This document shows positions 18,603 to 57,485 of a stretch of 64,000 bases of DNA, piece by piece (positions within the stretch are counted from its first letter, which is position 1; every line of letters starts with the position of its first letter). The position numbers and the translations under genes were made by a program. The notes beneath the pieces were generated by a model that had not been told where the DNA came from, ran no database searches, and saw only the letters and a list, made by a program, of their open reading frames with translations. Source of the stretch: an uncultured bacterium (GTDB lineage Bacteria > Krumholzibacteriota > Krumholzibacteriia > JACNKJ01); NCBI GenBank assembly GCA_964344565.1, contig CAYFNT010000019.1:6196-70195 (forward strand), written 5' to 3'.

Positions 18603-18679
18603 GAGTCGCCAGTCTCCAGTCGCCAGTCGCCAGTCTCCAGTCGCCAGTCTCCAGTCGCCAGTCTCCAGTCGCGAGTCGC
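18603..18679. repeat. Heptanucleotide tandem repeat, 11 units (AGTCGCC/AGTCTCC)
   Basis: Direct tandem array (agtcgcc agtctcc)xN. It fills the whole intergenic space between the stop of the T9SS protein gene and the ATG of the macro-domain gene. Confidence 0.9.
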
Positions 18680-18682
18680 CGG

Positions 18683-20441: not shown

Positions 20442-20483
20442 GCAGGGCCTCCTTGGAGGAGGCAATTGTAGCACAAAGCGATC

Positions 20484-20518
20484 GAGAACTGAGAACTGAG
20501 AACTGAGAACCGCGAACC
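20484..20518. repeat. Heptanucleotide tandem repeat, 5 units (GAGAACT), plus a CTCAGTC doublet at 20531-20544
   Basis: gagaact x3, gagaacc, gcgaacc, lying 43-77 nt upstream of the start of the T9SS protein gene. Confidence 0.85.
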
Positions 20519-21770: not shown

Positions 21771-21956
21771 GCCTAGTTTCCCCCCGCGCCGAGAACCTCA
21801 AGGATGGAAGGCGCGATTGTTGCATAGGCTTTCCGGGCTGGCAAGAAGGCAGCGAGACGGGCGCCGGAAGCCCTTGACCGGTTTTCAGAATCGCGCTTAC
21901 TATCGCGAAACGAAGGACTTAGCCCTCTGCCGCCGCCGGCCGAACGGGATGGGGAC

Positions 21957-22775
21957 ATGCCGATTTTCTTCTTTCGAAACGATGACGTGAACATCCTGGA
22001 CAGGGAACTGGTCGAGGTGACGGCCCGCTGCACCGAGCAGGGCGTTCCCATCAGCCATGCGGTGGAACCCGCCAACGTCACCGACGAGGCCGTCGCCTGG
22101 CTGAGGGAGGAGAAGGCCAAGGATCCTCGGCTCATCGAGATCACCCAGCACGGATACGACCACGAGCTGCGTGACCGTGGAGAGTTCGGCGGCGAGCGCG
22201 GCTTCGAGGACGCGCGAGACGACCTCGTCAAGGGCCGCGACATCCTCCTCGACAAGTTCGACGGCGATTTCCTCTCGGCCCTCAATTTCCCCTTCGGCAT
22301 CTACAACCAGAACGCCATGCGGGCCGCCGACGCGACGGGCTTCCGCATCATCTGCGCGCACTTCAACGCGCGGAAGTCGCGGCGGGCCATGTACACGGTG
22401 GGGCGCGCGCTGCGAATGGGGCAGATCCTCGGCAAGCACGTGTCGCATCACCTCGACTTCTATCCCAAGACGGGCATGTTCTCGGTGGACGTGTCCATCA
22501 GCTTCATCGATCGCTACATCGGCCCTCACGGAAGCAACACCTGCACATTCCACTCCCTGGACGAGATCAAGCGTCGCGTGCAGATGTGGATGCCCCACAC
22601 GCCGGTGATCGGACTGCTCCTGCATCACCGCTTCCATCACCAGGCCGAGCATCTCGATCTGATCAGCCGGGCCATCGAATGGCTGAAGACCATCGACGGC
22701 GCGGAATTCCGGAACATCGAGGAAATCTACGAGCGCTTCTGTCCCGAGCCGGGCAGCGGTTTTCGCAATGGCTGA
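21957..22775 (+). CDS. Polysaccharide deacetylase-like protein (CE4-like), tentative
   Basis: FFFRNDDVN start and an HGYDHE motif, seen in deacetylase-family proteins of EPS loci. Not well resolved without a search. Confidence 0.5.
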   Translation: MPIFFFRNDDVNILDRELVEVTARCTEQGVPISHAVEPANVTDEAVAWLREEKAKDPRLIEITQHGYDHELRDRGEFGGERGFEDARDDLVKGRDILLDKFDGDFLSALNFPFGIYNQNAMRAADATGFRIICAHFNARKSRRAMYTVGRALRMGQILGKHVSHHLDFYPKTGMFSVDVSISFIDRYIGPHGSNTCTFHSLDEIKRRVQMWMPHTPVIGLLLHHRFHHQAEHLDLISRAIEWLKTIDGAEFRNIEEIYERFCPEPGSGFRNG

Positions 22776-23940
22776 TCGCGCGCAGATCGTCTGCTTCGGC
22801 GGATACGACTACTGGTACAGCAACCCCGGCAGTCCCGTGCAGCTCATGGAGGCCGCGCATCGCGCCGGCCACAAGGTGCTCTGGGTGAACAGCATCGGCA
22901 TGAACATGCCGCGCATGCGCCGGAGCGGGTTCTGGCGTCGCGTGGGCCTGAAGCTGCGGAGCTGGTCGCGCTGGCTCAAGGCGGCCCACCCCGACTTCCA
23001 CGTGCTGTCGCCCATCATCCTGCCCCTATTCGGAATATCGGCGCTGGAGCGCATGAACGAGCGTTGGCTGGCCTTCCAGGTGAAGCTGGCCTATCGCATA
23101 CTCGGACTGAAGCAGCCCATGGTGATGGTCTGCCTGCCCTCCTTCGCCGAGGTGGCCACCTCGCTGCCCAACGACGGGCTCATCTACTACCTCACCGACA
23201 AGTTCGAATCCTATCGCGATCTGAAGGCGCGCGATTCCATGATGGCGCGTGACCACCTGCTCAAGGAAAGGAGCGACCTCTTGCTCTGCTCCTCCCGAAA
23301 GATCCAGGAGGATCTCGCGCAGTTCGACGGCAAGGTGAAGTACTTCCCCCACGCCGTGGATTCGTCGCGCTACGACGAGGCGCTGGCTTCCGGCGCCGAG
23401 GAACCCGCGGATCTGGTGGCCATACCCCATCCGCGCATCGGTTACTTCGGATCCCTGACCAACGCGAACAACCTGGACCTCATCGAGTACTGCGCCACCG
23501 AGGATACGAAGCTGCAGTTCGTGCTCATCGGCCGGGTGATGGGGGATTATTCGCAGGTGGAGAAGTTGCCCAACGTGCATCTGCTCGGCATGAAGGACTA
23601 CGAGGAGATTCCGCTCTACGGAAAGCACTTCGACGCGGGCATCATGACCTGGCGGCTCACCGAGTGGATCCGCTACTGCAGTCCCATCAAGACCAAGGAG
23701 TACCTGGCCCTCGGCCTGCCCGTGGTGTCGGTGCCCATCGCCGAGCACGACAAGGAGTTCAACGGATTCGTGGAAACGGCCGAGGACGGACCGCAGTTTC
23801 TGGCGGCCATCCAGAGAGCCTTGGCCGGCGATAGCGAAGAGAAGCGCGCCGCCCGTCGCGATCGGGTGAAGGGCGAGAGCTGGGATCGCAGTTTCGGCGA
23901 GATGATGAGCATGCTCGGGGAGCGTCGACGTGGCCATTGA
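22768..23940 (+). CDS. Glycosyltransferase family 4 (GT-B)
   Basis: KTKEYLALGLPVVS C-terminal GT1/GT4 motif. Overlaps its neighbours by a few nt, suggesting an operon. Confidence 0.75.
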   Translation: MADRAQIVCFGGYDYWYSNPGSPVQLMEAAHRAGHKVLWVNSIGMNMPRMRRSGFWRRVGLKLRSWSRWLKAAHPDFHVLSPIILPLFGISALERMNERWLAFQVKLAYRILGLKQPMVMVCLPSFAEVATSLPNDGLIYYLTDKFESYRDLKARDSMMARDHLLKERSDLLLCSSRKIQEDLAQFDGKVKYFPHAVDSSRYDEALASGAEEPADLVAIPHPRIGYFGSLTNANNLDLIEYCATEDTKLQFVLIGRVMGDYSQVEKLPNVHLLGMKDYEEIPLYGKHFDAGIMTWRLTEWIRYCSPIKTKEYLALGLPVVSVPIAEHDKEFNGFVETAEDGPQFLAAIQRALAGDSEEKRAARRDRVKGESWDRSFGEMMSMLGERRRGH

Positions 23941-25285
23941 GATTCCGCGCATCCTGAAACGCCCCGCCATGCGCCTGGTGGACTTCGCGCGCAAGACCGA
24001 CTCGCTCAAGCTGCTGCCCGAACTCATGGAGACCCAGTGGTGGAGCCTCGCCAGGCTCGAGGAGCTGCAGGCTCGGCGCATGTCCATGCTCGGACGCTTC
24101 GTACGCGCCGAGGTGCCCTACTGGCGCGAGGCCTTCGCGAAGGCCGGCATCGCGGAGACCGAGGATCTGACTCCAGAGAGCATCGCCCGCCTGCCCCTTC
24201 TGTCCAAGCACATGATCCGCGAGGCCGGCGACGCCCTCAGGTCCGCGAGCTTCGACAAGTGGCAGCCCCGACACAAGAACACCTCGGGTTCCACCGGCGT
24301 GCCATTGGACTACTACATCGACCGCCCGGCCCACAGCTGGCAGTGGGCGCACATGTGGCGGGGATGGGCCCAGACCGGCTATGTGCCCGGCGATCTCTAC
24401 GCATCGATCAGCGGCGGTTCGCTGGTGCCCGAGAAGGCGGCCATCAAGCAGTCGGCCTACATGGCGCTTTCCAGCGGCCTGCACTTCCCGACCTACCACA
24501 TGAACGACGAGATCATGGAGCGCTACGCCGTGCGGCTGGTGAGGAGCCCGGTGAAGTTCGTCTACGGGTATCCGTCGAGTCTGGAGATCTTCTCGGAGTA
24601 CATCACGGCCAGCCCGCGGGGGAAGATACCCATGCAGGCCGTGTTCACCACCAGCGAAGGGCTTTCGCCCAAGGCCCGTGCGGCCATCGAGGCGGCATTC
24701 GATTGCGAGGTCTTCGACACCTACGGTTGCAACGATGGCGGAATCTTCAGTTTCGAGTGCGAGCGGCACGAGGGCATGCACATCGGCATGGAGACCTGCT
24801 TCGTGGAGATCGTCGACGAGAAGGGCCGGCGCGTGCCCGACGGCGAGCCCGGCGAAGTCATCGCCACGAATCTGGTGATCAGGGCGATGCCGCTTCTGCG
24901 CTTCCGCACGGGGGACATCGCGATCCTCACCCGCGACAAGTGCGAGTGCGGGCGCGGATTGATCCGCGTGCAGGAACTGTCGGGGCGCGAGCGGGACGTC
25001 ATCCGCACCCCCGACGGGCGCAAGATCCACGGCGCCTTCTTCACGCATTTCGAGGCGCTTCACCACGCCGACTGGATCAACCGCTTCCAGATCCATCAGC
25101 CCGACCTGAACACCTTCATCCTGAGGGTGCAGCTCCGCCGCGAGCCCACGGAAGAGGACCGCCAGTCGGTCCTTCGCGACCTGCGTACCGCCTTGGGCGA
25201 CATGGACTTCCGCATCGAGGTCGCCGACGAGATGATGCTCACCCGCACCGGCAAGTTCAGGATCATCGTTTCCGACCTGAGCTGA
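23930..25285 (+). CDS. Phenylacetate-CoA ligase-like adenylate-forming enzyme (PaaK/CapK/F390 synthetase family)
   Basis: TSGSTGVP P-loop and a YGCNDGG motif, about 450 aa. This family recurs in capsule/EPS loci. GTG start. Confidence 0.75.
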   Translation: MAIEIPRILKRPAMRLVDFARKTDSLKLLPELMETQWWSLARLEELQARRMSMLGRFVRAEVPYWREAFAKAGIAETEDLTPESIARLPLLSKHMIREAGDALRSASFDKWQPRHKNTSGSTGVPLDYYIDRPAHSWQWAHMWRGWAQTGYVPGDLYASISGGSLVPEKAAIKQSAYMALSSGLHFPTYHMNDEIMERYAVRLVRSPVKFVYGYPSSLEIFSEYITASPRGKIPMQAVFTTSEGLSPKARAAIEAAFDCEVFDTYGCNDGGIFSFECERHEGMHIGMETCFVEIVDEKGRRVPDGEPGEVIATNLVIRAMPLLRFRTGDIAILTRDKCECGRGLIRVQELSGRERDVIRTPDGRKIHGAFFTHFEALHHADWINRFQIHQPDLNTFILRVQLRREPTEEDRQSVLRDLRTALGDMDFRIEVADEMMLTRTGKFRIIVSDLS

Positions 25286-25380
25286 GCGGATCCCCCGATT
25301 CCACTCTCCATCGCCGAAAGTAAATCGCGAGGCTCGTTCACCGAGTCCGTGCTAAAATGTCTGTGGATGGGAAAAGGGGG

Positions 25381-26829
25381 ATGATGATGACGTTGAGACT
25401 GTCCTTGCTCGCCATCGTAGCGCTCGTGATTTGCTTCTCCGGAACTCGCGCGGAAATCATCCACGTTCCAGGCACCTGGGACACCATCGCCGAAGCTCTC
25501 GCCGACGCCGTGGCCGGCGACGAGATCGTCATCGCCTGCGGTACCTACTACGAGAGGTCGCTGCAGATGAAGGACGGCGTCACGATCCGAAGCAGCACGG
25601 GCGATCCTTCCTGTGTGACCATCGACGCGGAGCAGGTTTCGGAAGTCTTCCTCGCGGACACTATCGGCGACACATCGGTGCTCGAGGGTCTGACCATTTC
25701 GGGAGGCTATGCGGCCGACGGGGCTGGCATCCATATCTCGGATGCGTCTCCCACGATCAGGGACTGTGTTTTCATCGACAACGATGCCGGTTGGGGCGGC
25801 GCCATGGCGGTCTATTATTCCTCCTTTCCCGAGATCACCGACTGCGTTTTCGACAGCAACGAGAGCTGGTTCGACGGTGGTGCCGTTCTTTGCATCGATG
25901 GGGCGCATCCCGTGTTCACGGATTGCGTCTTCGAATCCAACTACTCCTCCAGCGATGGCGGAGCTTTGAGTGCGAACAACTGCAGCGTCACGCTCTCGAG
26001 CTGCACCTTCGACGACAATGTGGCCGATGATCATGGGGGCGCGGTCTCGGTCTGGAACGACAGCAACGGCACGGTCACCGATTGCGATTTCAACGGGAAC
26101 GAGGCCGGCAAAGGCGGCGGTGGGTTGATCTGGAGCTTGTGCGTGAGCGGCCTGCTCGATGATTGCCGATTCTACGACAACACGGCGGACTACGGGGGTG
26201 GGCTCTACTGCTTCGTTGCCTCGCCCTCCGTGATCGGCTGCGAGTTTTCTTCGAACAATGCCGTTCCCGGCACTTGGGGGGATGGCGGAGGTTTCTACTG
26301 CGAGACCTTCGTGTCCTCGACCTTCGAGAATTGCACGTTCTTCGAGAACTCAGCGGTAGCGGGAGGCGGCGCCTACATCGATATCGACTGCGATCCCGAG
26401 TTCATCAACTGCACCTTCTACAGGAACACGGCGTCGGCCATCGGCGGCGGATTCTGCACTTGGGATACGGGCCATCCCATGCTCACCGGCTGCATCATCG
26501 CCTCCAGCCTCTCGGGCGGCTCGTTCTATTGCGGGAACGAAACGGTCGGGGCGACGCTGAACTGCTGCAATGTTTTCGGCAACGCAGGCGGCGATTGGAT
26601 CGGCTGCATCGCCAGCCAGCTGGGCGAGGACAATTTCTCGGCCGACCCGCTTTTCTGCCTCACGCCACCCTTCAGCATGTTCCCTCAGACGGGGTCGCCC
26701 TGTTTGCCTGGAAATCACCCCAATGGCGAAGACTGCAGATTGATCGGTGCCCTGGGCGAGGACGCAAACTGCGACGGGCAGCCCGTCCGCAGCGAAACGA
26801 CCTGGAGCAGCCTGAAGACGATGTACTGA
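25381..26829 (+). CDS. Secreted right-handed parallel beta-helix (PbH1-repeat) protein, paralog 1, with the C-terminal TWSSLKTMY tail
   Basis: Signal peptide MMMTLRLSLLAIVALVICFSGTRA. Many CxFxxNxAxxGGA(L/V) repeats and a conserved Cys-rich region SPCLPGNHPNGEDCRLIGALGEDANCDGQP. Ends in TTWSSLKTMY. Confidence 0.75.
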   Translation: MMMTLRLSLLAIVALVICFSGTRAEIIHVPGTWDTIAEALADAVAGDEIVIACGTYYERSLQMKDGVTIRSSTGDPSCVTIDAEQVSEVFLADTIGDTSVLEGLTISGGYAADGAGIHISDASPTIRDCVFIDNDAGWGGAMAVYYSSFPEITDCVFDSNESWFDGGAVLCIDGAHPVFTDCVFESNYSSSDGGALSANNCSVTLSSCTFDDNVADDHGGAVSVWNDSNGTVTDCDFNGNEAGKGGGGLIWSLCVSGLLDDCRFYDNTADYGGGLYCFVASPSVIGCEFSSNNAVPGTWGDGGGFYCETFVSSTFENCTFFENSAVAGGGAYIDIDCDPEFINCTFYRNTASAIGGGFCTWDTGHPMLTGCIIASSLSGGSFYCGNETVGATLNCCNVFGNAGGDWIGCIASQLGEDNFSADPLFCLTPPFSMFPQTGSPCLPGNHPNGEDCRLIGALGEDANCDGQPVRSETTWSSLKTMY

Positions 26830-26908
26830 TGATTGCTTGATCCTATTCCAGCCTGGGTCTAGTGTCTGATCCACCTCGTTGTGAAGACTCGCAATCCGGA
26901 GGATCAGG

Positions 26909-28267
26909 ATGAAGAGAATCGCCCTGCTCGCAGCAGGCTCCATCGCGCTCTCATTTCACCCCCTTCGCGCCGAGATCATCTCGGTTCCCGGCGACCATCC
27001 CACCATCGCGGAGGCCCTGACGGCCGCCGTCTACGGCGACGAGATCGTCATCGCTGCCGGCACCTATCCGGAGGGCGGCCTCTCGCTGAAAACGGGCGTC
27101 ATCATCCGCGGCGCGACGGGCAACTACACCCACGTGATCGTCGACGGCGAAGACGCCCAAACGGTCTTCTTCGCCGAGGGCGTCGACGGCTCCGCGGAAC
27201 TGCGAGATCTCACGGTGACCGGCGGGTCCGGAGCCAACGGCGGCGGACTGCGCTGCTGGGTCGCATCGCCGACCATCGCCAACTGTCGATTCCAGGGGAA
27301 CGCCGCCGACAACGGGGGCGCCATGGCCATCCAGCTGGGGTCCTCTCCGTCGATCACGAATTGCCGCTTCGAGAGCAATCAGGCCACATGCTGCGAGGGC
27401 GGGGCGCTCTATATCGAGAACAACAGCTCGGTCCAGATCTCCGGCTGCGACTTCGAGGGGAACATCGGCCGCAACGGAGGCGGTATCCACGTGCAGACCA
27501 CAGACCTCACCCTCGTGGATTGCCTCTTCGAAGTGAACACGGCGACCTTCAATGGGGGCGGCGTCAACGCCGGCACGGGCAGCAGCTGCGTTCTCATCGA
27601 CTGCGTGTTCCAAGAGAACGGGGCCGGCGTCGGCGGCGGGGCCGTGGCGAGGGCCGTGGCGACCCTGGGCGATATCACCGACTGCTTCTTCGAGGGAAAC
27701 ACGGCGGACTACGGCGGTGCGCTCTTCTGCCGGAACGTCGTGTTCAACGTGACCGGCTGCCAGTTCCTGGGGAACATCGCCGCGCCGGGCTACGACGGCT
27801 ATGGGGGCGCGGTCTTCTGCGAGTCCAATGCCGATCCCTTATTCGAGAACTGCACCTTCTACGCCAACTCGGCGGTGGAAGGAGGCGCGCTCTACGCGGA
27901 ATCCAACTGCAGCCCCGGATTCACGAACTGCATCATCGCCTTCGGCGCTGGAGGGGGAGCGGTGGCCTGCGAGAGCGGCCTGCGGACGATACTGCTGGAC
28001 TGCTGCGACCTCTTCGGCAACGTCGGTGGCGACTGGACCGGCTGCATCGCCGGACAAGACGGCGGCACGAACTTCTCGGCCGATCCGCTGTTCTGCCCGA
28101 CGCCGCCGTCCAGCCTGTGGCTGCAGACCGGGTCGCCCTGCCTGCCGGGGAATCATCCCAATGCGGAAGACTGCGGACTCATCGGCGCACTGGGCGAGGA
28201 CGCCGACTGCGACGGGCAGCCTGTCAGCGCCGTGGAGACCTGGAGCACCTTGAAGAGGATGTACTGA
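26909..28267 (+). CDS. Secreted right-handed parallel beta-helix protein, paralog 2, with the C-terminal TWSTLKRMY tail
   Basis: GGAGG RBS and signal peptide MKRIALLAAGSIALSFHPLRA. Repeats and C-terminal Cys-rich region like paralog 1. Ends in ETWSTLKRMY. Confidence 0.75.
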   Translation: MKRIALLAAGSIALSFHPLRAEIISVPGDHPTIAEALTAAVYGDEIVIAAGTYPEGGLSLKTGVIIRGATGNYTHVIVDGEDAQTVFFAEGVDGSAELRDLTVTGGSGANGGGLRCWVASPTIANCRFQGNAADNGGAMAIQLGSSPSITNCRFESNQATCCEGGALYIENNSSVQISGCDFEGNIGRNGGGIHVQTTDLTLVDCLFEVNTATFNGGGVNAGTGSSCVLIDCVFQENGAGVGGGAVARAVATLGDITDCFFEGNTADYGGALFCRNVVFNVTGCQFLGNIAAPGYDGYGGAVFCESNADPLFENCTFYANSAVEGGALYAESNCSPGFTNCIIAFGAGGGAVACESGLRTILLDCCDLFGNVGGDWTGCIAGQDGGTNFSADPLFCPTPPSSLWLQTGSPCLPGNHPNAEDCGLIGALGEDADCDGQPVSAVETWSTLKRMY

Positions 28268-30550: not shown

Positions 30551-30880
30551 ATGCCCAAATTGCCGCGGTCCGACGCCGCACTTCAGGCCCTGGCGCAGCG
30601 ATTCAAGCTGCTTGCCGAACCTGTCCGTCTGAGGATCCTCGAGATCCTGGCGGAGGGGGAGAAGTCCGTCCAGGAAGTCACCGCCGCCTCGGGCCTGCGC
30701 CAACCGCACATTTCCCGCCAACTTGCGATACTCGCCGAATCCGGCGTCCTCCTTCGACGTAAGGAGGGGACTCGCGTATACTACTCGCTCAGCGATTCCC
30801 ATATTTCCGCGCTTCTGGACGCTGCCGGCCGCTCGCTCCGCGAGCACCTCACCGGGCGTCTGGAGCAACTGGAGGAATGA
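30551..30880 (+). CDS. ArsR/SmtB family transcriptional regulator
   Basis: LLAEPVRLRILEILAEGEKSVQEV...SRQLAILAESGVL winged HTH, 109 aa. The stop overlaps the start of the M16 peptidase gene (ATGA). Confidence 0.85.
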   Translation: MPKLPRSDAALQALAQRFKLLAEPVRLRILEILAEGEKSVQEVTAASGLRQPHISRQLAILAESGVLLRRKEGTRVYYSLSDSHISALLDAAGRSLREHLTGRLEQLEE

Positions 30881-33800
30881 TGAAGAACCCTCTGATTCCC
30901 GTTATCGTCGTCCTGGTCGTCCTCGCCATGTTCATGTTGGTGTTCAAGTCCGGCGGGGATGGGCTGGAGAGCCTCGAGCATGGCCAGGTCATCCACGGTT
31001 TCGCCGTGGAGAATCTTTACGTGGACGGTGCCGATCGGGCCATGGGCGCGCGCTTCATCTCCGAGGAGAAGGGCTTCATCGTCGACCTGCTTCAGATCCA
31101 GTCGGTGCCCCAGGGATTCATCTGGGTGAAGAGTCCGCCGGATTCCGATCGCGGCGAACCCCACGCCTGCGAGCATCTGCTTCTGGGCAAGGGTCGTCAG
31201 GGACGCTACGTGGCGGCGCTGGAGGCCATGACCCTCGGCAACGCCAGCGCCTGGACCGCGCAGACCAACACGGTCTACCACTTCAACACCCTGGGCGGTG
31301 AGGAGAACTTCTTCGCCACCTTCGAGGCGCGGCTGAACGCCCTGGTGAATCCCGATTTCACCGACGAGGAGATTCGCCGCGAGATCGTCCATCTCAGCGT
31401 GGTGGAGGATGCCGGCGGCGAGTTGGGCCTCGAAGAGAAGGGTTCGGTCTACACCGAGATGGTGAGCAGTTTCGAGGGACCGGGCTATCCGCTCTGGGGC
31501 GGCGTGGGCGACATGCTCTTCGGCAAGGACCATCCCCTGGCCAACAGCTCCGGCGGACATCCCGACTCCATGCGCAGCATGACACCCGAGCACATGCGCG
31601 ACTTCGTGGCGGATACCTACCGGCTTCCGAACATGGGCATCATCGTGTCGGTGCCCAGAAGCTTCGAGATGGAGGATCTGCTCGAGGAGTTCGAAGGCAT
31701 CCTCGATCGCGTGCAGCCGGGCAAGCTCGAGAGCGATTTCGTAGGCATGAACGCCCTGAACCTTCCCCCGATCACCGACGCCGATCCCGAAGGCGCCGTG
31801 CGCATCGCCGCCTACCCCAGCGACAATCCCGAAGATCCCGGGGAGGTGCTCGTGGTCTGGCCGCCTCGGGATCCTCTGGCGAACTTCGACCGCTTCATGC
31901 TGGAGACCTTCCTGGACGGTTTCGCGGGCGGCCCCGGCACCGAGCTTTACGACCTCTTCATCAATTCCGAAACACGAAAGGTGGAGCTGGGAGCCAGCGC
32001 CGTATGGAGCTACGTGCCCGAGGAGCCCGGCTCGCCGGTCTTCTTCGGCCTGGACGGCCTGGACAACCGCAACATCGAGGGACGCAGCCTGCGGAGGGCG
32101 CGGGGGCTCATCGTGGAGGAACTGCACAAGCTCTACGAATTGGAATCGGGTTCGGAGGAGCTGGACGACTTCAACGATCGCGTGTCCAGCAATCTCGTGC
32201 AGACCCGCAAGTACCTCGAGCGCGCCTTGAATTCGCCGCCCCAGTTCGGCTTCCGCATGAGCGGCATGGCCAGACGCTGGCAGGACATCATGGCCTTCCT
32301 CGAGCTGGACGAGGGATTCCGCAAATCCCTGGTCATGGACTCGCATTTCGTCCGGGCCGAGGAACTCCTCGCCGGCGATGAGAACTTCTGGCAAGAGCTG
32401 CTGGATCGCTGGGGCCTGCTCGATGCGACGCCATACGTCATGGCGGTGCATCCGGATCCCGGCATGCTGTCGGCGGCCGAGGAGGCCAAGCGGGCCCGTC
32501 TGTCCGCGGCCATCGAGGGGATGAAGGACCGATTCGACGAGGATGAGGCCCAGGTTGCCCTGGCCAGGTTCCGCGATGAGTTCGATGCGAACACGGCCGA
32601 ACTCGAGGCCATCGCCGCCGAGGAGACCCTTCCCGGATTCATGGACGATCCGCCCATGGAGATTGACGAGCAGCTCCGGTACGAGACCGTGGCACTTCCG
32701 GGCGGGGCTGAGATGGTGGCCGCCACCTTCGAGAACATGAGCACTGCGACCCTGCAGGTCAGTTTCGGCCTTCAGGCCGTACCCAGCGACAAGCTCGTCT
32801 ACCTGCCCCTGCTGCCCTACCTCATGCGTGGCGTGGGCGTGGAACTGGACGGCGAGCGCATCGAGTACGACGACATGGAGAAGCGTCTGCGCGCGGAGCT
32901 CCTGTCCTACCGGGCCGACCTGACCACCAATCCCGAGACCGGCCGCGCCGAGTTGGTGTTCAGCTTCGGCGCCAGCAAGCCCGACGAGATCGATCGCGGT
33001 TTCGAGTGGATGCGCGCCTCGCTCACCGCGCCGCTGCTCGACGGGGACAACCTGTCCCGCATCGGCGACCTGCTCGACCAGCGCCTGCACCGCATGCGTA
33101 CGCGCATGCAGGGCAGCGAGGAATCCTGGGTGAGCGATCCGGCCGCGGCCTATCGCTACCAGGACGATCTCCTCTATCTCAGCGCGGGATCCTTCCTCAC
33201 CCAGACCCATCAGCTGCTTCGACTCAAGTGGCGCTTCACCGAGCCCGACGGCGAGGGCGAAGCGTATCTGGACGAGCTCGAGCGGCGCGGCCGCGACGCC
33301 TCGCGCGAAGAACTCTTGGCCCTGCTCGACGGAGCGCCGGAGGAAGGCATCCGGGCGGACCTCGCCTCCTCCCTTCGGTCGAGTCTCCCGGCTCTGCCCG
33401 ACGCCTCGATATCCGATGATTGGGCGCGGCTCTGCGCCACACTGCGCAGCGAGCTGGCCACGCCGCCGGATCAGGCCTTCACCGACCTGCGCGCTTTGCT
33501 GGACCTGTTGGCCCGCGCCGAGAATGCCCGCCTGTCCCTGGTGTCCAACTCCCGGGATCGCGGCGAGAAGCTCGGCGTCATCGAAGCCTTCCTGGCGGAC
33601 TTCTCCGGCAAGGGGGCGCCGGCCGCACAGAAACACCACCGTCGGGACTACGTGCTGGATCGCTATCGCGAGCGCAGCGGCATGACGGACAAGCCGATCT
33701 ACGCGGGACTCGTGAATGAGAACACGCGCAACGGCACCCTCATCTTCTCAGCCCGCATGGCCGAAGCCTGGCAGGCCGACCGCGAGTCGGCCCTCAACGC

Positions 33801-34377
33801 CCTGACCGGCCGGCTCTTCGGCGGCGGCGGCGGGCACGGTTTCTTCATGCGCACCTGGGCCGCCGGCCTGGCCTACAGCAACGGATTCGGCTATCGCGAA
33901 AACACGGGCATGACCACCTACTACGCGGAGCGTTGCCCGGACGTGGCCGAAACCATGCGCTTCGTGGTGGGGGTGCTCGAGGACACGGAGCTGGACGCCA
34001 GCTTCAAGGACTATTCCATCGCCGGCATGTTCGGACGCTCCCGCGCCGCCGCAGGCTACGAATCCCGCGGGCAGGCCATGGCCGCCGACCTCACGGACGG
34101 TTTCGGGCCGGAGCGCGTCCGAGACTTCCGCGGACAGGTCATGGATCTGCGCGGATGGGGCGAACTCCTGCCCGACATGCAGTCCCGCCTGGATGCAGTC
34201 TACGGCAGCGTGCTCATCGGCTACGGCGAACCATTGTCCGAGAGTCGCGACGGCGTCTTCTTCCTCATCGGTCCCGAGCCTCAATTCGAATCCTTGGAGA
34301 CCTACATCGCCACGGTTGAAGAGCCGCAGGCCGTGCATCGACTCTATCCCCGTGACTTCTGGCTCGTGGACCTGTAG
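30877..34377 (+). CDS. Large membrane-anchored M16-family (pitrilysin/insulinase-like) zinc metallopeptidase
   Basis: Inverted zincin motif HACEH (HxxEH) followed by NASAWTAQTNTVYHFN and downstream Glu residues. N-terminal signal-anchor MMKNPLIPVIVVLVVLAMFMLVF. 1166 aa. Confidence 0.75.
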   Translation: MMKNPLIPVIVVLVVLAMFMLVFKSGGDGLESLEHGQVIHGFAVENLYVDGADRAMGARFISEEKGFIVDLLQIQSVPQGFIWVKSPPDSDRGEPHACEHLLLGKGRQGRYVAALEAMTLGNASAWTAQTNTVYHFNTLGGEENFFATFEARLNALVNPDFTDEEIRREIVHLSVVEDAGGELGLEEKGSVYTEMVSSFEGPGYPLWGGVGDMLFGKDHPLANSSGGHPDSMRSMTPEHMRDFVADTYRLPNMGIIVSVPRSFEMEDLLEEFEGILDRVQPGKLESDFVGMNALNLPPITDADPEGAVRIAAYPSDNPEDPGEVLVVWPPRDPLANFDRFMLETFLDGFAGGPGTELYDLFINSETRKVELGASAVWSYVPEEPGSPVFFGLDGLDNRNIEGRSLRRARGLIVEELHKLYELESGSEELDDFNDRVSSNLVQTRKYLERALNSPPQFGFRMSGMARRWQDIMAFLELDEGFRKSLVMDSHFVRAEELLAGDENFWQELLDRWGLLDATPYVMAVHPDPGMLSAAEEAKRARLSAAIEGMKDRFDEDEAQVALARFRDEFDANTAELEAIAAEETLPGFMDDPPMEIDEQLRYETVALPGGAEMVAATFENMSTATLQVSFGLQAVPSDKLVYLPLLPYLMRGVGVELDGERIEYDDMEKRLRAELLSYRADLTTNPETGRAELVFSFGASKPDEIDRGFEWMRASLTAPLLDGDNLSRIGDLLDQRLHRMRTRMQGSEESWVSDPAAAYRYQDDLLYLSAGSFLTQTHQLLRLKWRFTEPDGEGEAYLDELERRGRDASREELLALLDGAPEEGIRADLASSLRSSLPALPDASISDDWARLCATLRSELATPPDQAFTDLRALLDLLARAENARLSLVSNSRDRGEKLGVIEAFLADFSGKGAPAAQKHHRRDYVLDRYRERSGMTDKPIYAGLVNENTRNGTLIFSARMAEAWQADRESALNALTGRLFGGGGGHGFFMRTWAAGLAYSNGFGYRENTGMTTYYAERCPDVAETMRFVVGVLEDTELDASFKDYSIAGMFGRSRAAAGYESRGQAMAADLTDGFGPERVRDFRGQVMDLRGWGELLPDMQSRLDAVYGSVLIGYGEPLSESRDGVFFLIGPEPQFESLETYIATVEEPQAVHRLYPRDFWLVDL

Positions 34378-34410
34378 CGAGATCGGCAAAGCGGATCGAT
34401 TTATCTGTTG

Positions 34411-34445
34411 ATGGGCGCCGTCTGAGCACGGCGCCCATTTTCTTG
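34411..34445 (+). terminator. Rho-independent terminator after the M16 peptidase gene
   Basis: atgggcgccg-tctgagca-cggcgcccat, a perfect 10-bp stem followed by TTTTCTT. Confidence 0.75.
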
Positions 34446-34510
34446 GAGGAAACTCTCGAAGGTCGAAGAGACTTGAGTCACAATCCGCTATCACGAGGAG
34501 GAGATTCTCC

Positions 34511-34969
34511 ATGATAACTCGGATTCTCGATGTTCTCGTTTCCCGACTCAACGAACACCTTCAATCCGAGTTGGGATTGCCTTCGAATCTTGTCGGCCTC
34601 GCACCGCCGCCGAAAGACGGTTTGATGGAAAAGTCGGATCGCGTTGATCTGACATTTCTGAGCATCGAACCGGATCCGCATTCAAGGAACTCGGGGAGTT
34701 CGCCTGCTGCCTTGAATCTGGATGTGCGAGTGGCTTTCAGTTTTCACGGCGAATCCTACGGCGCGGCCCTCGATCTGGTGTATGCGGTTCTGGATTTCTT
34801 CCATCGGAACGTCGTTTTCGAAATCGATGCGCAGGAGACTTCCAACGGTCTGAGGGTGCAGGTCGAACAGCAGAGCCCATCGACCGAGGAAGTCAACTAT
34901 CCATACAGGGTCGTTTACCCAACCCCGGCTCCGCGACTCGACTACCGCATTCGAATCCAGGAGATGTAA
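34511..34969 (+). CDS. DUF4255-like protein (Afp16/Pvc16 N-terminal-domain-like component of contractile injection systems), tentative
   Basis: 152 aa and a GAGGAGG RBS. The start MITRILDVLVSRLNEHL resembles DUF4255 family starts. Sits immediately upstream of the sheath gene. Confidence 0.5.
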   Translation: MITRILDVLVSRLNEHLQSELGLPSNLVGLAPPPKDGLMEKSDRVDLTFLSIEPDPHSRNSGSSPAALNLDVRVAFSFHGESYGAALDLVYAVLDFFHRNVVFEIDAQETSNGLRVQVEQQSPSTEEVNYPYRVVYPTPAPRLDYRIRIQEM

Positions 34970-34975
34970 TCGAAG

Positions 34976-36445
34976 ATGGCACCCAAGAAGAGAACTGCTA
35001 GATCGCGTCGCCTGAAGACTCCCGGCGTTTATGTGGAGGAAGTTTCGTTCTCGGTGCCATCGGTGGCCGAAGTGGAAACCGCCGTTCCGGCGATCATGGG
35101 ATACGTGGAGAGGGCCGACGTACTTTTCGAACCCGTAGCAGTCAAGTCCATGGTGGAGTTCCGGGAGTTGTTCGGTGGGGAGGCGCCGCTTCGCATCGAC
35201 GAGGTGCGGGTGGATCAGAACCATGCCTTCGAGTCGGCGCGCATTCGCGCAGGATCTCATCTGCACGACAGCATCCGTCTCTTCTACGAAAATGGCGGCG
35301 GGGGCTGCTACGTGGTTCCGGTGGGGACCTACTCGGATCGCCCCGAACTGGAGCACTTCGAGCGCGGCCTCGCCCGTCTTGCGAAGGAGGATCGCGTCAC
35401 ACTGCTCCTCTTTCCCGACGCCGTGCTTCTGAGCAAGGATCTCTACGCGGTGCAGAAACTCGCCCTGAAGCAATGCGGCAAGCTCCAGGATCGTTTCGCG
35501 ATCCTCGATCTCCATGATATCCGGGAGATGCCCAGTCCTCTGGTCTCGGGTTTCCGATCGGAAATCGGGATCGAAAACCTGAAGTATGGAGCCGCCTACC
35601 TTCCTCACCTCGAGTACCCGTCCGGACGATCCCTACGCTTCCGTGATTTGAAGGGAAAGCTGCGGCGAGGGGAAGAGTCGATGAGGATTGGCGATCTGAT
35701 CGAGGATCGCGAAGAGTTCCGCGAGCTTGCTCAGAAACTCGAAGGGCTCATCGATGAGTATCCAGACGGCTCACCCACGGCTGAGGAGAGCGAACTGGAG
35801 ACGGAACTGAGGGCCGTGTCGGCCAGGTTCGGGGCCCTGCTCGGCGAAATCGAGATGCTTCCGTCATTCGTTCCTCCGAGCGGAGCGGTGGCGGGCCTGT
35901 ACGCCTTGACGGACACCACGCAGGGCGTCTGGAAGGCCCCGGCGAATGTGGCCCTGGGAGGCATCACCGGAGTGGCATGTTCCATCGACAGTCACGATCA
36001 GGATAGCCTGAACGTGGATCCCGCATCCGGAAAGTCCATCAATGCGATCCGTCCCTTTATCGGAAAAGGTTGTCTGGTCTGGGGGGCGAGAACCCTGGCT
36101 GGAAACGACAACGAGTGGCGTTACGTGCCGGTTCGGCGCTTTGTCATCATGCTGGAGAAGTCCCTGAAGAAGTCGATCCAGTGGGCGGTCTTCGAGCCTA
36201 ACGATGCGAAGCTCTGGGTCAAGGTGAAGGGCATGATCGAGAACTTTCTCACCGTGAAATGGCGCGAGGGGGCCCTGATGGGCAGCATGCCGGAATATGC
36301 ATACTACGTCAAAGTCGGCCTGGGGCAGACCATGACCGAACTGGACATTCAAGAGGGCCGGCTGAACATCGAAGTGGGCTTCGCGCCGTTGAAGCCCGCC
36401 GAGTTCATCGTTCTGAAGTTCTCCCACAAGATGTTAGAGAGCTAG
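34976..36445 (+). CDS. Contractile phage-tail/eCIS sheath protein
   Basis: N-terminal KTPGVYVEEV. The C-terminal sheath domain shows GVWKAPANVALGGITGV, GCLVWGARTL, NEWRYVPVRRFVIMLEKSLKKSIQWAVFEPND and FLTVKWREGALMG, all hallmark Phage_sheath motifs. Confidence 0.85.
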   Translation: MAPKKRTARSRRLKTPGVYVEEVSFSVPSVAEVETAVPAIMGYVERADVLFEPVAVKSMVEFRELFGGEAPLRIDEVRVDQNHAFESARIRAGSHLHDSIRLFYENGGGGCYVVPVGTYSDRPELEHFERGLARLAKEDRVTLLLFPDAVLLSKDLYAVQKLALKQCGKLQDRFAILDLHDIREMPSPLVSGFRSEIGIENLKYGAAYLPHLEYPSGRSLRFRDLKGKLRRGEESMRIGDLIEDREEFRELAQKLEGLIDEYPDGSPTAEESELETELRAVSARFGALLGEIEMLPSFVPPSGAVAGLYALTDTTQGVWKAPANVALGGITGVACSIDSHDQDSLNVDPASGKSINAIRPFIGKGCLVWGARTLAGNDNEWRYVPVRRFVIMLEKSLKKSIQWAVFEPNDAKLWVKVKGMIENFLTVKWREGALMGSMPEYAYYVKVGLGQTMTELDIQEGRLNIEVGFAPLKPAEFIVLKFSHKMLES

Positions 36446-36453
36446 GGGGCGCC

Positions 36454-36882
36454 ATGGATCGCATGCCATTGCCGAAATTCCGTTTCCTGCTCAAGTGGGA
36501 GGAGTGTGCGATTTCCTTCAGCGAGGTGACGGGCCTCGACAGCGAAGTCGAAGCGGTCGAGTATCGGGGAGGCGGGGATCCCGAGTTTTCCCCGATCACG
36601 ATGCCTGGATTGCAGGAATTCTCGAACCTTACCCTGAAACGCGGATACGGTGAGGGTGGACCGCTCATAGACTGGATCAAGGAGATCCGAAGCAACGTGA
36701 TCAAGCGATATGCCATGACCATCCAGCTGCTGGACGAGGATTCCCGGCCCGCCATGACCTGGCAACTCACGAACGCCTTTCCGGTGAAGATCGAGGCCTC
36801 CGATTTGAACGCATCGGAAGGGGAATTCGCCATCGAAACGCTGGAGCTCGCTCACGAAGGAATCAGGATCAACACTCCCTGA
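36454..36882 (+). CDS. Contractile tail tube protein (T4 gp19/eCIS Cis1-like)
   Basis: KFRFLLKWEECAISFSEVTGLDSEVEAVEYRGGG...NLTLKRGY...IETLELAHEGIRIN matches the tail-tube family pattern. Start trimmed to MDRMPLP with an AGGGGG RBS. Confidence 0.8.
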   Translation: MDRMPLPKFRFLLKWEECAISFSEVTGLDSEVEAVEYRGGGDPEFSPITMPGLQEFSNLTLKRGYGEGGPLIDWIKEIRSNVIKRYAMTIQLLDEDSRPAMTWQLTNAFPVKIEASDLNASEGEFAIETLELAHEGIRINTP

Positions 36883-36935
36883 GCTCTCCCGGATGGGCGT
36901 TCCATCTCGCGGAGGCCGTACCGGTAAACGCTGCT

Positions 36936-36965
36936 GGCCCGCTCCCGCGGGCCTTGACTTTCGGC
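36936..36965 (+). terminator. Hairpin ggcccgc-tccc-gcgggcc followed by TTGACTTTC. Weak terminator after the tube gene, overlapping the next promoter.
   Basis: Perfect 7-bp GC stem followed by a modest T tract. Confidence 0.35.
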
Positions 36966-36982
36966 AATAAAGAGCATATGTT
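36954..36982 (+). promoter_or_regulatory. Sigma70-like promoter TTGACT-17-TATGTT upstream of the DUF134 gene
   Basis: ccTTGACTttcggcaataaagagcaTATGTTcataat, about 20 nt before the ATG at 37004. Confidence 0.45.
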
Positions 36983-37003
36983 CATAATCGAAAGCGAGGA
37001 GCC

Positions 37004-43921: not shown

Positions 43922-45409
43922 CTACTTGATGAGCACGAGCCGGATGATCTCCGATCCCTCCCCGGCCCGGATGCGGCAGAAGTAGACGCCGCTGCTCCGG
44001 TCCCGGCCGAGCTCGTCGCGGCCGTTCCAGTCGAGAGTGATTCTCCCCGGGCCGGCATGCTCATCCAGAAGAGTCGCGACCCTGCGTCCGGAGATATCGA
44101 AGATCTCCACGACCGCATGGGCGGGTTCTTCGAGACCGAATTCGATACGCGTGCTCGGATTGAAGGGGTTCGGGGCGGCGCTTGCGGCGAATTCCTCGCG
44201 GTTCATCGATCCGCAGGCTCCCCAGGCTCCCATTAGGCCGCAATCGTTGTTGTCGGGCAGGCAGGGGGAGTCGGGTTGGAGGAAGGGACGATAGTCGAAG
44301 GTCGTGCAGATGAGCGGATCCTCGCAGATATTGCCGTCCACGCCGAGGAGCTCGAGGATCACCGGCGTCCAATCTCCGGCTGGGTTTCCGAAGAAGTTCG
44401 AACAGGAGATCAGCGGCGGATCGTCGAGCCAATACTGGTAGATGGCCTGTCCCTGGATCGATCCAGCGATCAGACACTTGTCGATCTCGACATAGGCCTC
44501 TTCGGTGATGCCGATGTTGCCGCCTCCGGATACGACATTGCCGAAGAAACTGCAGCTCTCGACGCGGTGCACTCCCAGATCCAGCAGAACCGTGCTGCCG
44601 CTGTATCCGTCGTTTGCGACGAACGTGCATCCCAGGAGAGTTCCCCGGCACTTGTTCAGACTGATCGCGTGTCCGCCAGCCCAACCGTAGTTGTCGTAGA
44701 AGATGCAGTCCTCGATCAGGAGTCTGCCGGAATCGTGGGCGGCCACGCCGCCTGCGTTGATCGTCCGGTTTCTCTCGAAGAGCGAAGCGCCTATCCGACC
44801 TCGACTGCCGCTCGTCACCGCCACGGTTCCCCAGCAGCCCTGTTGGTGGTGGCCGTTTTCGATGAATCGACAGTTCTGAATGTCGACATGCGAGTCGTTG
44901 ACGAAGCAGATGGCAGATCCGCCGGTACCCGCCCCGGCGATGTTGTTCATGAAGAGGGTATCCTCGATGCGGGGACGCGATTCGCTGAAGAAGAGGCCGC
45001 CGCCGGGGCTTTCGCTGCGGTTGTCGAAGATGACGCAGTTTCGAATCGTCAGTGAGGATTCAGTGAATCGGCCGGCGCCTCCGTGGAACTCGTCCGCGTG
45101 CGTGAAGGTGATTCCCTCGATGAGGGTGCTTCCGTCCAGGCCGACGCCTCGAATGCAGTAGCCTTTATCCATGGCGTCGACGGTGACGCATTCGGGATCG
45201 CCGGAACCGCTCCGCAGCGTGACGCCGCTTTTCATCTCGAGGTGGAATTCCTCGTAGATGCCGCAGGCCACCTGGACGGTGTCCCCCCGCTCGGCCAGTT
45301 CGATGCCGGCCTGGATGCTCGGCGCATCCGTTGGAACGTGGATGATCAGGGAGTTCGCCGGAACGGCGCAGAGCATCAGGATCGATAAACGAGTCAGGGT
45401 CTTTCGCAT
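43922..45409 (-). CDS. Secreted right-handed beta-helix protein, paralog 3, carrying a T9SS-type C-terminal sorting domain
   Basis: Signal peptide MRKTLTRLSILMLCAVPANS. PbH1-like repeats and a Cys-rich region homologous to the 25381 and 26909 proteins (NFFGNPAGDW...DSPCLPDNNDCGLMGAWG). C-terminus EIFDISGRRVATLLDEHAGPGRITLDWNGRD...GVYFCRIRAGEGSEIIRLVLIK is a T9SS CTD. Confidence 0.75.
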   Translation of the reverse strand: MRKTLTRLSILMLCAVPANSLIIHVPTDAPSIQAGIELAERGDTVQVACGIYEEFHLEMKSGVTLRSGSGDPECVTVDAMDKGYCIRGVGLDGSTLIEGITFTHADEFHGGAGRFTESSLTIRNCVIFDNRSESPGGGLFFSESRPRIEDTLFMNNIAGAGTGGSAICFVNDSHVDIQNCRFIENGHHQQGCWGTVAVTSGSRGRIGASLFERNRTINAGGVAAHDSGRLLIEDCIFYDNYGWAGGHAISLNKCRGTLLGCTFVANDGYSGSTVLLDLGVHRVESCSFFGNVVSGGGNIGITEEAYVEIDKCLIAGSIQGQAIYQYWLDDPPLISCSNFFGNPAGDWTPVILELLGVDGNICEDPLICTTFDYRPFLQPDSPCLPDNNDCGLMGAWGACGSMNREEFAASAAPNPFNPSTRIEFGLEEPAHAVVEIFDISGRRVATLLDEHAGPGRITLDWNGRDELGRDRSSGVYFCRIRAGEGSEIIRLVLIK

Positions 45410-45494
45410 TTCAACCGCCCTTTCCCACATCAGTCTGATTATGTAGCTATTCTAGCAGCTTCCTCCCTTCGGGTAAACCGGCCCAGTATTCAAT

Positions 45495-56281: not shown

Positions 56282-56866
56282 CTAGTACAATGTCTTCAGA
56301 TGCTCCCAGGTCGTGCTCTCCGTGCTCGTCCATCCGCTGAGCAGGATGATGTTGCAGGGCTCGTAGCCGCAGGCGAAGGCCATGAGGTCCGGGGCCGGCT
56401 CCTGGCAGACGTCGTGGTCGATGTCCCAGGCCTGGAAGGTGTGCAGGAAGATGCGCTCCTCCAGCAGGAATCCGTCGCCCGCCGCATCGGCGTAGAGAAG
56501 GCAGTGGAAGCCCGGATTGCCGCAGCAATCGATGCAGAGGGCCCAGTCCGCCCAGTTCTCGCCGAATAGCGGATGATCCAGCCAGGGATCCGGCCAGTAG
56601 GTGTCATAGATGCTCGTGTCGGTCCCGTACATGTGGAAGTAGGTCTCGTAGCAGAACCAGCAGGTTCCGCCGAGGCCGAAGTGGAGTTCGGTGATCCATT
56701 CGGATCCCGAATCGGGAACGAGCACCATGCGCACCGTGGCTTCGGACTCCTCGGTGAACTCGTTGATGGTGTAGGGATCGTCGTCGGTGTCGATGTCCAG
56801 CAGGATCTGGTAGGCGCCCGCGGGAATCGAGACCAAGAGTAGCAGAATCGCGATAGTCAGTTTCAT
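56282..56866 (-). CDS. Small secreted Cys-rich protein, tandem paralog 1, with the C-terminal TWEHLKTLY tail
   Basis: Signal peptide MKLTIAILLLLVSIPAGA, then GGTCWFC, CIDCCGNPGFHC, AFACG and PCNII motifs. Confidence 0.6.
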   Translation of the reverse strand: MKLTIAILLLLVSIPAGAYQILLDIDTDDDPYTINEFTEESEATVRMVLVPDSGSEWITELHFGLGGTCWFCYETYFHMYGTDTSIYDTYWPDPWLDHPLFGENWADWALCIDCCGNPGFHCLLYADAAGDGFLLEERIFLHTFQAWDIDHDVCQEPAPDLMAFACGYEPCNIILLSGWTSTESTTWEHLKTLY

Positions 56867-56885: not shown

Positions 56886-57485
56886 TCAGTAAAGTGCCTT
56901 GACCAGTTCCCAACTGGTCTCCATGGATGCCTGTCCCGGTACGGATGAAAGGGGCGAGCTCAGGTTGATCACGTTGCAGGGCCCCCCGCAGGCGAAGGCC
57001 ATGAGGTCGGGGGGCGGTTCCTGGCAGATGTCATGGTCGATGTCCCAGGCCATGAAGTCGCGAAGGAAGATCCGCTCCTCCAGATAGAATCCTCCGCCCA
57101 CGGCCTCGGCCGAGAAGAAGATGTGGTAGCCCGGATTTCCGCAGCAGTCGATGCAGGTGGCGCCGCCCATTTCCGCATTCTCGAATAGAGGATGCTCGAG
57201 CCATGGCTCGATGAAGGCGAAGAGCTCGCAGTCGGTGCCGTACATGTGGAAGTAGTCCTCGAAACAGAACCAACAGGTTCCTCCCAGACCGAAGTGGATG
57301 ATGGATATCCATTCTCCATCTCCCTCCGGAGCCAGGATGAGGCGAACGAGGGCCTCTGCTTCGGGGGTGGATTCGTTGAGGGTGTAGGGATCGTCGTCCA
57401 GATCGATGTCGAGCAAGATCTGAAAAGCAGCGACCGGGACGGCGGTGAAGATCAGGCATATGAGCAAGACGAACAGTTTTTTCAT
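56886..57485 (-). CDS. Small secreted Cys-rich protein, tandem paralog 2, with the C-terminal SWELVKALY tail
   Basis: Signal peptide MKKLFVLLICLIFTAVPVAA. Cys pattern as paralog 1 (GGTCWFC, CIDCCGNPGYH, AFACGGPCNVI). Confidence 0.6.
   Translation of the reverse strand: MKKLFVLLICLIFTAVPVAAFQILLDIDLDDDPYTLNESTPEAEALVRLILAPEGDGEWISIIHFGLGGTCWFCFEDYFHMYGTDCELFAFIEPWLEHPLFENAEMGGATCIDCCGNPGYHIFFSAEAVGGGFYLEERIFLRDFMAWDIDHDICQEPPPDLMAFACGGPCNVINLSSPLSSVPGQASMETSWELVKALY

Follow-up and report, generated by a model that had tools for sequence, protein, structure and literature searches.

A short C-terminal motif in the place of the type IX secretion system sorting domain in a beta-helix protein family and in unrelated predicted exported proteins of Krumholzibacteriota and related phyla

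The 64,000-nucleotide stretch of DNA analyzed here (the window) is part of contig CAYFNT010000019.1 from an uncultured bacterium of the Krumholzibacteriota and encodes three related beta-helix proteins, referred to as A, B, and C. Judged by their sequences, A, B, and C are one family of predicted Sec-exported right-handed beta-helix proteins with a modular C-terminus that begins directly after a Cys-rich cap. C ends in a type IX secretion system (T9SS) type A C-terminal domain (CTD), and A and B end in a short motif, called the tag below. The leucyl-tRNA synthetase of the organism shares 74-77% identity with sequences that bear the label Candidatus Krumholzibacteria and 78-94% with closer relatives.

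Gene C (43922-45409, minus strand) encodes a predicted secreted protein that matches the Beta_helix family PF13229 (E=1.3e-14) and is identical to the database protein P0001. From the ATG at 45409, the gene encodes 495 amino acids (aa) followed by a stop codon, and an in-frame upstream ATG at 45430 gives a product of 502 aa, which is seven residues longer. Both starts are found as database gene calls (P0001 and P0132), and a canonical signal peptide results from the shorter form only. Read by eye, this predicted signal peptide spans residues 1-20 (MRKTLTRLSILMLCAVPANS; 45350-45409, minus strand) and has a basic n-region, a hydrophobic core, and small residues ahead of LIIHVP. The Cys-rich cap at the C-terminal end of the beta-helix covers residues 336-397 (CSNFFGNPAGDW...DSPCLPDNNDCGLMGAWG; 44219-44404, minus strand), from the invariant column C336 to the invariant column G397. 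Past the cap glycine, C has 98 residues, composed of a 14-residue linker (residues 398-411, ACGSMNREEFAASA; 44177-44218, minus strand) and an 84-residue domain (residues 412-495; 43925-44176, minus strand). Residues 412-492 match TIGR04183, the "T9SS type A sorting domain," at 31.4 bits against a curated cutoff of 23. The match stops three residues before the stop codon, and motifs B (PxNPF; here PNPFNPST, or APNPFNPST with the preceding residue), D (GxY; here SGVYFCRI), and E (a basic residue in the last strand; here IRLVLIK) are readable. The scores against the Pfam models Por_Secre_tail (PF18962, 19.6) and FlgD_ig (PF13860, 25.5) are both slightly below the cutoff of 27, so the membership of this domain among T9SS type A CTDs rests on the NCBIfam model. 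The domain also shares 34% identity (E=4e-14) with the CTD of a second window protein, encoded at 18683-20476. By its C-terminal signal, C is a predicted T9SS cargo protein, which agrees with the original prediction, made from the DNA sequence alone, that this gene ends in a T9SS CTD. The genes next to C encode Fe-S and 2-oxoacid:ferredoxin oxidoreductase proteins and are without obvious connection to it.

Genes A (25381-26829, plus strand, 482 aa) and B (26909-28267, plus strand, 452 aa) encode proteins that are 49% identical to each other. A, B, and C match PF13229 at 54.6, 83.1, and 58.7 bits (cutoff 25.9; E from 1e-14 to 2e-23), A and B match the Chlamydia polymorphic membrane protein repeats (PF02415) as well, and the N-termini of all three resemble signal peptides. 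After the cap, A and B each have 23 residues, EDA(N/D)CDGQPV..ETWS(S/T)LK(T/R)MY, and then the stop codon, with a conserved core of 9-14 residues. In A, this segment is residues 460-482 (EDANCDGQPVRSETTWSSLKTMY; 26758-26826, plus strand) with the tag core TWSSLKTMY at 26800-26826. In B, it is residues 430-452 (EDADCDGQPVSAVETWSTLKRMY; 28196-28264, plus strand) with the tag core TWSTLKRMY at 28238-28264. Neither protein has a match to TIGR04183, PF18962, or PF13860 at E≤1, and with neither a profile match nor a domain of CTD size the two tails do not belong to the T9SS CTDs of any type. They also differ from the tripartite signals of exosortases, rhombosortase, and sortases in that eight residues with an invariant Lys follow the Trp. 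Because the stop codon of A is 80 nucleotides (nt) from the start of B and a convergent CLC-channel gene directly adjoins B, there is no space for a frameshifted CTD after either gene.

The three proteins part at a single junction. In BLASTP comparisons, residues 1-397 of C align with residues 5-459 of A (E=5e-46, 30% identity), and residues 2-397 of C align with residues 3-429 of B (E=6e-35, 31% identity). Both alignments end exactly at residue 397 of C, the last Gly of ...DCGLxGAxG (DSPCLPDNNDCGLMGAWG), and a multiple alignment agrees, making the cap the last segment of C that is homologous to A and B. The original prediction had held that C is homologous to A and B through the beta-helix repeats and the Cys-rich block, and that the short tail and the CTD occupy the same architectural slot. 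Both claims are borne out: the homology runs from the signal peptide to residue 397, and the two kinds of C-terminus begin at one shared cap glycine. The outcome that was named as refuting this, a homology that ends well before the C-terminal regions, did not occur, since the alignments reach the last Gly of the cap. The contrast of an approximately 90-residue CTD with a 15-residue tail was roughly right, and the measured segments are 98 and 23 residues with a conserved core of 9-14.

Database homologues of C divide in the same way. In about 22 of the 120 best of them, the cap is followed directly by a terminal [ST]W[GSA]x[ILVM]Kxx[YF](R/K); nearly all others of the 120 end in a FlgD_ig or T9SS-type CTD, and none carries both signals. 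The median distance from the end of the cap to the Trp of the tag is 13 residues (n=20; 16 in A and B), and that from the end of the cap to the start of the CTD model is 22 residues (n=85; 14 in C). A rough neighbor-joining tree of the protein bodies of 100 members requires at least 9 changes between tag and CTD, compared to about 18 with shuffled labels. A and B group with tag forms and C with CTD forms in this tree, the deep nodes of which are unreliable. Recent recombination within the genome between A/B and C was considered and rejected, given their ~31% identity and the grouping of C with CTD-type relatives. The window holds two old lineages of one family with no recent exchange between them.

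The tag is also present on window proteins of a different kind. A small Cys-rich, predicted secreted protein of 194 aa (56282-56866, minus strand) ends in TTWEHLKTLY (core at 56285-56311), and its tandem paralog of 199 aa (56886-57485, minus strand) ends in TSWELVKALY (core at 56889-56915). The pair at 56282-57485 matches nothing in Pfam and is not similar to the beta-helix proteins. It belongs to a narrow family of 11 close homologues with a conserved core, DIDxDDDP...FGLGGTCW...CIDCCGNPG; all 11 keep the tag motif, and the linker ahead of it varies. A search of the six-frame open reading frames (ORFs) in the window for W..[LIVMF][KR]..[YFW] within three residues of the stop codon gave only A, B, and the Cys-rich pair, and this confinement to four genes excludes a chance origin of the tag. 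The window therefore contains four tag proteins and two CTD cargo proteins, C and the product of 18683-20476 (minus strand). The latter has 597 aa and a type A CTD at ~18686-18919 that scores 29.7 bits against TIGR04183 (cutoff 23) and 27.9 bits against FlgD_ig. The body of this second cargo protein has no recognizable domain, and its gene is conserved beside the A/B locus in the closest relative (locus L002, 1804-3573).

A scan of genomes by alignment of tag-type beta-helix proteins gave 79 loci, totaling 1.2 Mb. These loci are mostly from metagenome-assembled genomes labelled Candidatus Eisenbacteria or Eiseniibacteriota, and others are labelled Latescibacteria, Krumholzibacteriia, and Gemmatimonadetes. 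Six-frame ORFs of at least 80 aa in this sample contain 94 occurrences of W..[LIVM]K..[YF], of which 92 are within 12 residues of the stop codon and 90 are within 5. When the scan was repeated with the window included, three internal matches to the pattern were found, none of which resembled the full motif. Conservation extends to positions outside the search pattern: T/S is present at -1 in 99%, G at +1 in 82%, A/S/T at +5 in 90%, R/K at +8 in 78%, V/T at -5 in 74%, and E at -4 in 48%. Approximately 22 carrier families in these loci are unrelated to the beta-helix proteins, and they include a TolB-like PD40 propeller, a pilin-like protein carrying a PKD domain, and proteins with RCC1-like, cohesin-like, or DUF11-like repeats. 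Tag genes of different families cluster, as in locus L031 (5827-12343), with four in a row, and locus L015 (457-15349), with six within 15 kb, five of them outside the beta-helix family. Locus L047 (9974-20313) holds five tandem beta-helix paralogs with tails that end ...WGRIKARFA(Q/R).

Because the genome sample was drawn from beta-helix neighborhoods, Joint Genome Institute metagenome contigs were scanned as well, with the back-translated tag core and a stop codon as the query. At least 120 stretches were recovered, with at least 148 tag ORFs in at least 79 sequence clusters. Among the metagenome matches listed, the beta-helix cap signature is present in 2 of the 148 tag ORFs, and the motif ends within two residues of the stop codon in 146 of 147 occurrences. 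Upstream positions that the search left free are conserved among these matches as well (T/V at -7 in 75%, P/A at -6 in 79%, and V/T/A at -5 in 87%). By a simple heuristic of our own, signal-peptide-like N-termini are found on 68 of 96 tag ORFs from the genome loci (71%) and 92 of 118 from the metagenomes (78%) versus 113 of 726 other ORFs (16%). In the genome loci, the median stop-to-stop length is 410 aa for tag proteins and 715 aa for CTD proteins, and the complete tag ORFs among the metagenome matches listed have a median of 279 aa. Many tag linkers have one or two Cys residues 9-12 residues ahead of the Trp.

From these samples, the consensus of the tag is (T/V)-(P/A)-(V/T)-E-x-(T/S)-(T/S)-W-G-x-(I/V/L)-K-(A/S)-(M/L)-(Y/F)-(R/K)-stop, and the variant in the lineage of the window is S/T-W-(S/E)-x-(L/V)-K-x-(M/L)-Y-stop. 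The tag is about 14 residues long and is conserved while the linkers that precede it vary, and in the genome loci 0-5 residues may follow it. Neither whole proteins nor isolated tails of 32-35 aa gave a Pfam or NCBIfam match to the tag at E≤10. Literature on the motif, on T9SS or secretion in Eisenbacteria or Krumholzibacteria, and on choice-of-anchor proteins was searched and contained no mention of the tag. An origin as a CTD fragment was examined and rejected, as the region upstream of NPF in 142 CTD proteins contains no W..IK..Y-like element.

An AlphaFold2 model of B, built from 23 family sequences, is a right-handed beta-helix with a regular strand pattern and a predicted local distance difference test (pLDDT) score above 90 over residues 23-380. 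The Cys-rich cap scores 53-65, and the scores fall below 50 over residues 438-452, of which 445-451 form a short helix. The small Cys-rich protein gave a poor model, with a mean pLDDT of 58.6. In both models, the tag lies outside of the folded domain with a pLDDT below 50. Foldseek comparison of the B model with the PDB returned GH87, Pel9A, PL6 lyases, RbmB, AlgE4, AlgG, and PfbA at 8-15% identity and TM-scores of 0.3-0.5. The modeled fold of A, B, and C thus resembles polysaccharide lyases, epimerases, and adhesins, and the low identity of these matches means that no activity is fixed for the three proteins. The same fold is shared with the beta-helix proteins of PF13229 and PF02415, including PL6/PL9 lyases, AlgG/AlgE epimerases, and PfbA, and the catalytic residues of A, B, and C are unassigned.

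Alternation between tag and CTD is not limited to the beta-helix family. When a profile of the family of small Cys-rich proteins was run against 1.84 billion representatives, 27 relatives came up, and most of these end in the tag. One of them, the distant relative P0262, aligns with the window Cys-rich protein to residue 187 and then matches TIGR04183 at residues 201-280 (27.2 bits, cutoff 23), so that the CTD match begins about 10 residues past the end of the body alignment. A second member, P0276, has a CTD-like domain at its end as well. Among RCC1-like proteins, a tag form from locus L015 is 58% identical to a CTD form from locus L040 (TIGR04183, 28.5 bits). One more tag/CTD pair was found, weaker than the RCC1-like and Cys-rich cases. 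Tag and CTD therefore alternate in three families with a CTD that passes the curated cutoff, and the evidence for a fourth is weaker. No ORF in the genome-locus or metagenome samples carries both signals, and tag and CTD proteins are found together in each of the 11 assemblies from which 25 kb or more was sampled. The short tail had been described in the original prediction as an address label that can be exchanged for a CTD. This description holds up in that the same terminal motif is found on unrelated, predicted exported families, is strictly C-terminal and exclusive with the CTD, and alternates with it elsewhere, all of which characterize a portable C-terminal tag; a role in sorting is what we infer from this pattern.

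In the region 20529-28267, A and B end a same-strand gene run with overlapping stop and start codons. The genes ahead of them are an unknown one at 21957, one like glycosyltransferase family 1 at 22768, and one of the AMP-binding/PaaK-like kind at 23930, and the glycosyltransferase and AMP-binding genes together occupy 20529-25285. At 20529-21770 there is a divergent glycosyltransferase family 4 (EpsE-like) gene. The glycosyltransferase neighbor and the arrangement of A and B are kept in the closest relative (locus L002). These conserved surroundings are a hint of a role in polysaccharide metabolism, and they suggest that the pair is part of an exopolysaccharide locus.

Two repeats flank the second CTD cargo gene. 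The heptanucleotide AGTCGCC is repeated in tandem 11 times with a perfect period and 85% matches at 18604-18680, and it lies in the 80-nt gap that separates the stop codon of the cargo gene from a macro-domain gene (18051-18602). Another short repeat, of 7/14 nt, is located at 20483-20517, just upstream of the start of the cargo gene. Elsewhere, the region at 30877-37000 (plus strand) encodes parts of a phage-tail-like contractile injection apparatus, namely Pvc16_N (34511-34969), a tail sheath (34976-36445), and a gp19-like tube protein. These are preceded by a 1166-aa protein whose sole family match is a weak one to M16-C. This region may lie at the margin of a locus for an extracellular contractile injection system.

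C-terminal tags have repeatedly led to their machinery, as with the sortases, exosortases, rhombosortase, and the T9SS. That members of one family can carry different C-terminal sorting signals is established from the "choice-of-anchor" families, and TIGRFAMs/NCBIfam describe a series of such tags, including PEP-CTERM for exosortase, GlyGly-CTERM for rhombosortase, LPXTG for sortase, and MYXO-CTERM, which are tripartite, with a motif, a transmembrane helix, and a basic cluster. The tag resembles the choice-of-anchor families in that alternative signals are found at one junction, and it is short, terminal, and, in particular lineages, present on many unrelated exported proteins. Unlike the PEP-CTERM, GlyGly-CTERM, and LPXTG tags, it has no transmembrane segment and no match to an NCBIfam CTERM model. 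Another close comparison is the T9SS type A CTD (TIGR04183/PF18962). Both are located at the extreme C-terminus of Sec-exported proteins of the Fibrobacteres-Chlorobi-Bacteroidetes (FCB) group and are modular across unrelated families, and the tag of A and B fills exactly the slot of the T9SS CTD, of which the last 84 residues of C are a member. The tag differs from it in being a core of 9-14 residues and not an Ig-like domain, and in lacking motifs B, D, and E.

On balance, we favor the view that the tag is portable, separate from the CTD, and serves in sorting or retention, and it is probably an undescribed protein-sorting signal. The tag would act as a second C-terminal signal that is read by some component after Sec export, and its reader would give the protein another fate than T9SS cargo, such as a different surface attachment or release. 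It would probably act as a short amphipathic helix near the free C-terminus on a disordered linker, with W, I/V/L, M/L, and Y/F on one face and K and R/K flanking it. The helical periodicity of the motif agrees with the low-confidence short helix in the AlphaFold2 model. Right before the Trp, T/S is nearly invariant, and (T/V)(P/A)(V/T)E is conserved upstream, which suggests a specific recognition or processing site. More tentatively, (T/V)(P/A)(V/T)E-x-x-T-W-G-x-I-K-x-x-Y-R could be what an undescribed post-Sec route recognizes in Krumholzibacteriota, Eisenbacteria, and related FCB phyla, and this route might be a dedicated outer-membrane sorting or attachment pathway or a radically minimized T9SS input.

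The last of these possibilities borders on another explanation, that the tag is an ultra-short T9SS signal and that the same T9SS, with its PorV shuttle, SprA/Sov translocon, and PorU sortase, exports A, B, and C, which would then differ only in signal length or in their later attachment. A minimal T9SS input is plausible because the tag shares the slot, the genomes, and the cargo families of the CTD: it takes the place of the CTD in three or four families and is found in the same genomes and contigs as CTD cargo. Like the CTD, it must be C-terminal, and its carriers have signal peptides as T9SS cargo does. The linkers of tags and of CTDs also share a 5-10 fold enrichment of a loose [TSAV][GPA][VIT][ED] pattern, though this is a weak, post hoc observation, and "TPV" itself is not enriched in CTD linkers outside the beta-helix family. 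However, the tag is too short for a beta-sandwich and has none of motifs B, D, and E, and TIGR04183 and PF18962 miss the tails even at E≤10. The most similar case on record is the variable T9SS signal length of Prevotella intermedia, in which the "short" CTDs still keep motifs B, D, and E, with alignment numbering to ~60 (PMC11969387). An ultra-short signal for the same machinery would also leave unexplained why both forms persist in every well-sampled genome, and we regard it as unlikely. Less likely again is that the tag is a retention or docking peptide without a part in transport, which would hold otherwise soluble exported proteins at the envelope, either as an amphipathic helix on the outer membrane or lipopolysaccharide or as the ligand of a scaffold, by a logic like that of dockerins. 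The placement of W, I, M/L, and Y on one helix face with K and R flanking, which is our own reading of the sequence logos, would suit such a peptide, as would the short modeled helix on a disordered linker, the smaller size of tag proteins, and the 0-5 trailing residues, which argue against strict recognition of a terminal carboxylate. Yet 9-10 residues are very short for a membrane anchor, no candidate receptor is present among the recurrent neighbors of tag genes, and the near-invariant T/S and upstream (T/V)(P/A)(V/T)E point to recognition by an enzyme or receptor more than to a generic amphipathic helix.

The remaining explanations are far weaker. A miniature exosortase signal of the PEP-CTERM kind, with (V)EP(T/S)(T/S) as the PEP motif, is suggested by a superficial likeness that we read in x-V-E-P-T-T, a short hydrophobic stretch, and a basic residue. 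PEP-CTERM and related signals (TIGR02595-type) need a membrane-spanning helix, though, and the tag has no transmembrane segment, with about 8 residues and a central Lys between the motif and the terminal Arg. Furthermore, Pro is found at -3 in 17-41% only, no PEP-CTERM model matches the tag, and no exosortase gene is present among the window proteins scanned, which leaves this origin very improbable. It is scarcely credible that the tail is a conserved structural end of the beta-helix family or a remnant of CTD loss with no function of its own. This idea fits the first sighting of the tail, on A and B only and right behind the family cap, but it is contradicted by the same motif at the ends of dozens of unrelated folds. 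In addition, the tag is conserved while the linkers ahead of it vary, its low pLDDT comes with no packing on the domain, and it has no sequence similarity to any part of a CTD. Two other types of C-terminal recognition were set aside because of motif spacing and the variable 0-5 trailing residues, namely PDZ-type recognition and the beta-signal of outer-membrane proteins. The latter signal, polar-x-G-x-x-aromatic/hydrophobic-x-aromatic/hydrophobic, is located at the C-terminus of beta-barrels and is recognized by BamA/BamD. The tag is likewise short and C-terminal, has its aromatic residue at the terminus or next to it, and is carried by exported diderm proteins, but it has a Lys on a hydrophobic position, helical periodicity, and soluble host folds.

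Several points limit or weigh against reading the tag as a distinct sorting signal. One is that no conserved gene was found beside tag genes when 894 ORFs from the 79 loci were clustered. Families that recur by tag genes do so in at most 4-5 loci and are kinases, TPR/sulfatase proteins, sigma factors, and glycosyltransferases. No T9SS component was found among ~33 window proteins scanned or in the 10 recurrent neighbor clusters (whole genomes were not searched), and the GldK match in those clusters is only of the generic FGE-sulfatase type (59.6 bits, cutoff 350). Neither experiment nor genomic context ties the tag to any machinery, and its putative sorting role is deduced from sequence. A conserved C-terminal peptide could instead bind a partner or tag the protein for degradation, quality control, or regulation. 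The helix in the tag is itself a low-confidence prediction. The samples have a bearing as well, as the genome loci are biased to beta-helix neighborhoods, the metagenome sample fixes seven motif positions by design, the ORFs of both censuses are stop-to-stop translations and not gene calls, and the CTD detector used in them is a hidden Markov model built from the CTDs of the beta-helix family itself.

Which proteins a bacterium secretes or displays on its surface is defined by C-terminal sorting tags. The novelty here lies in the particular signal and not in the swapping of sorting signals within one family. In the window, the C-terminal signal allows five proteins to be annotated, C as predicted T9SS cargo and A, B, and the two Cys-rich proteins as tag carriers. 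The tag provides a sequence rule for predicting exported proteins in uncultured phyla that are widespread in soil and sediment, and, if our reading is true, it would mark a large unrecognized set of surface or secreted proteins that is predictable from sequence alone. The alternation of tag and CTD is a handle for comparative genomics and could reveal a new sorting component or a way into the T9SS.

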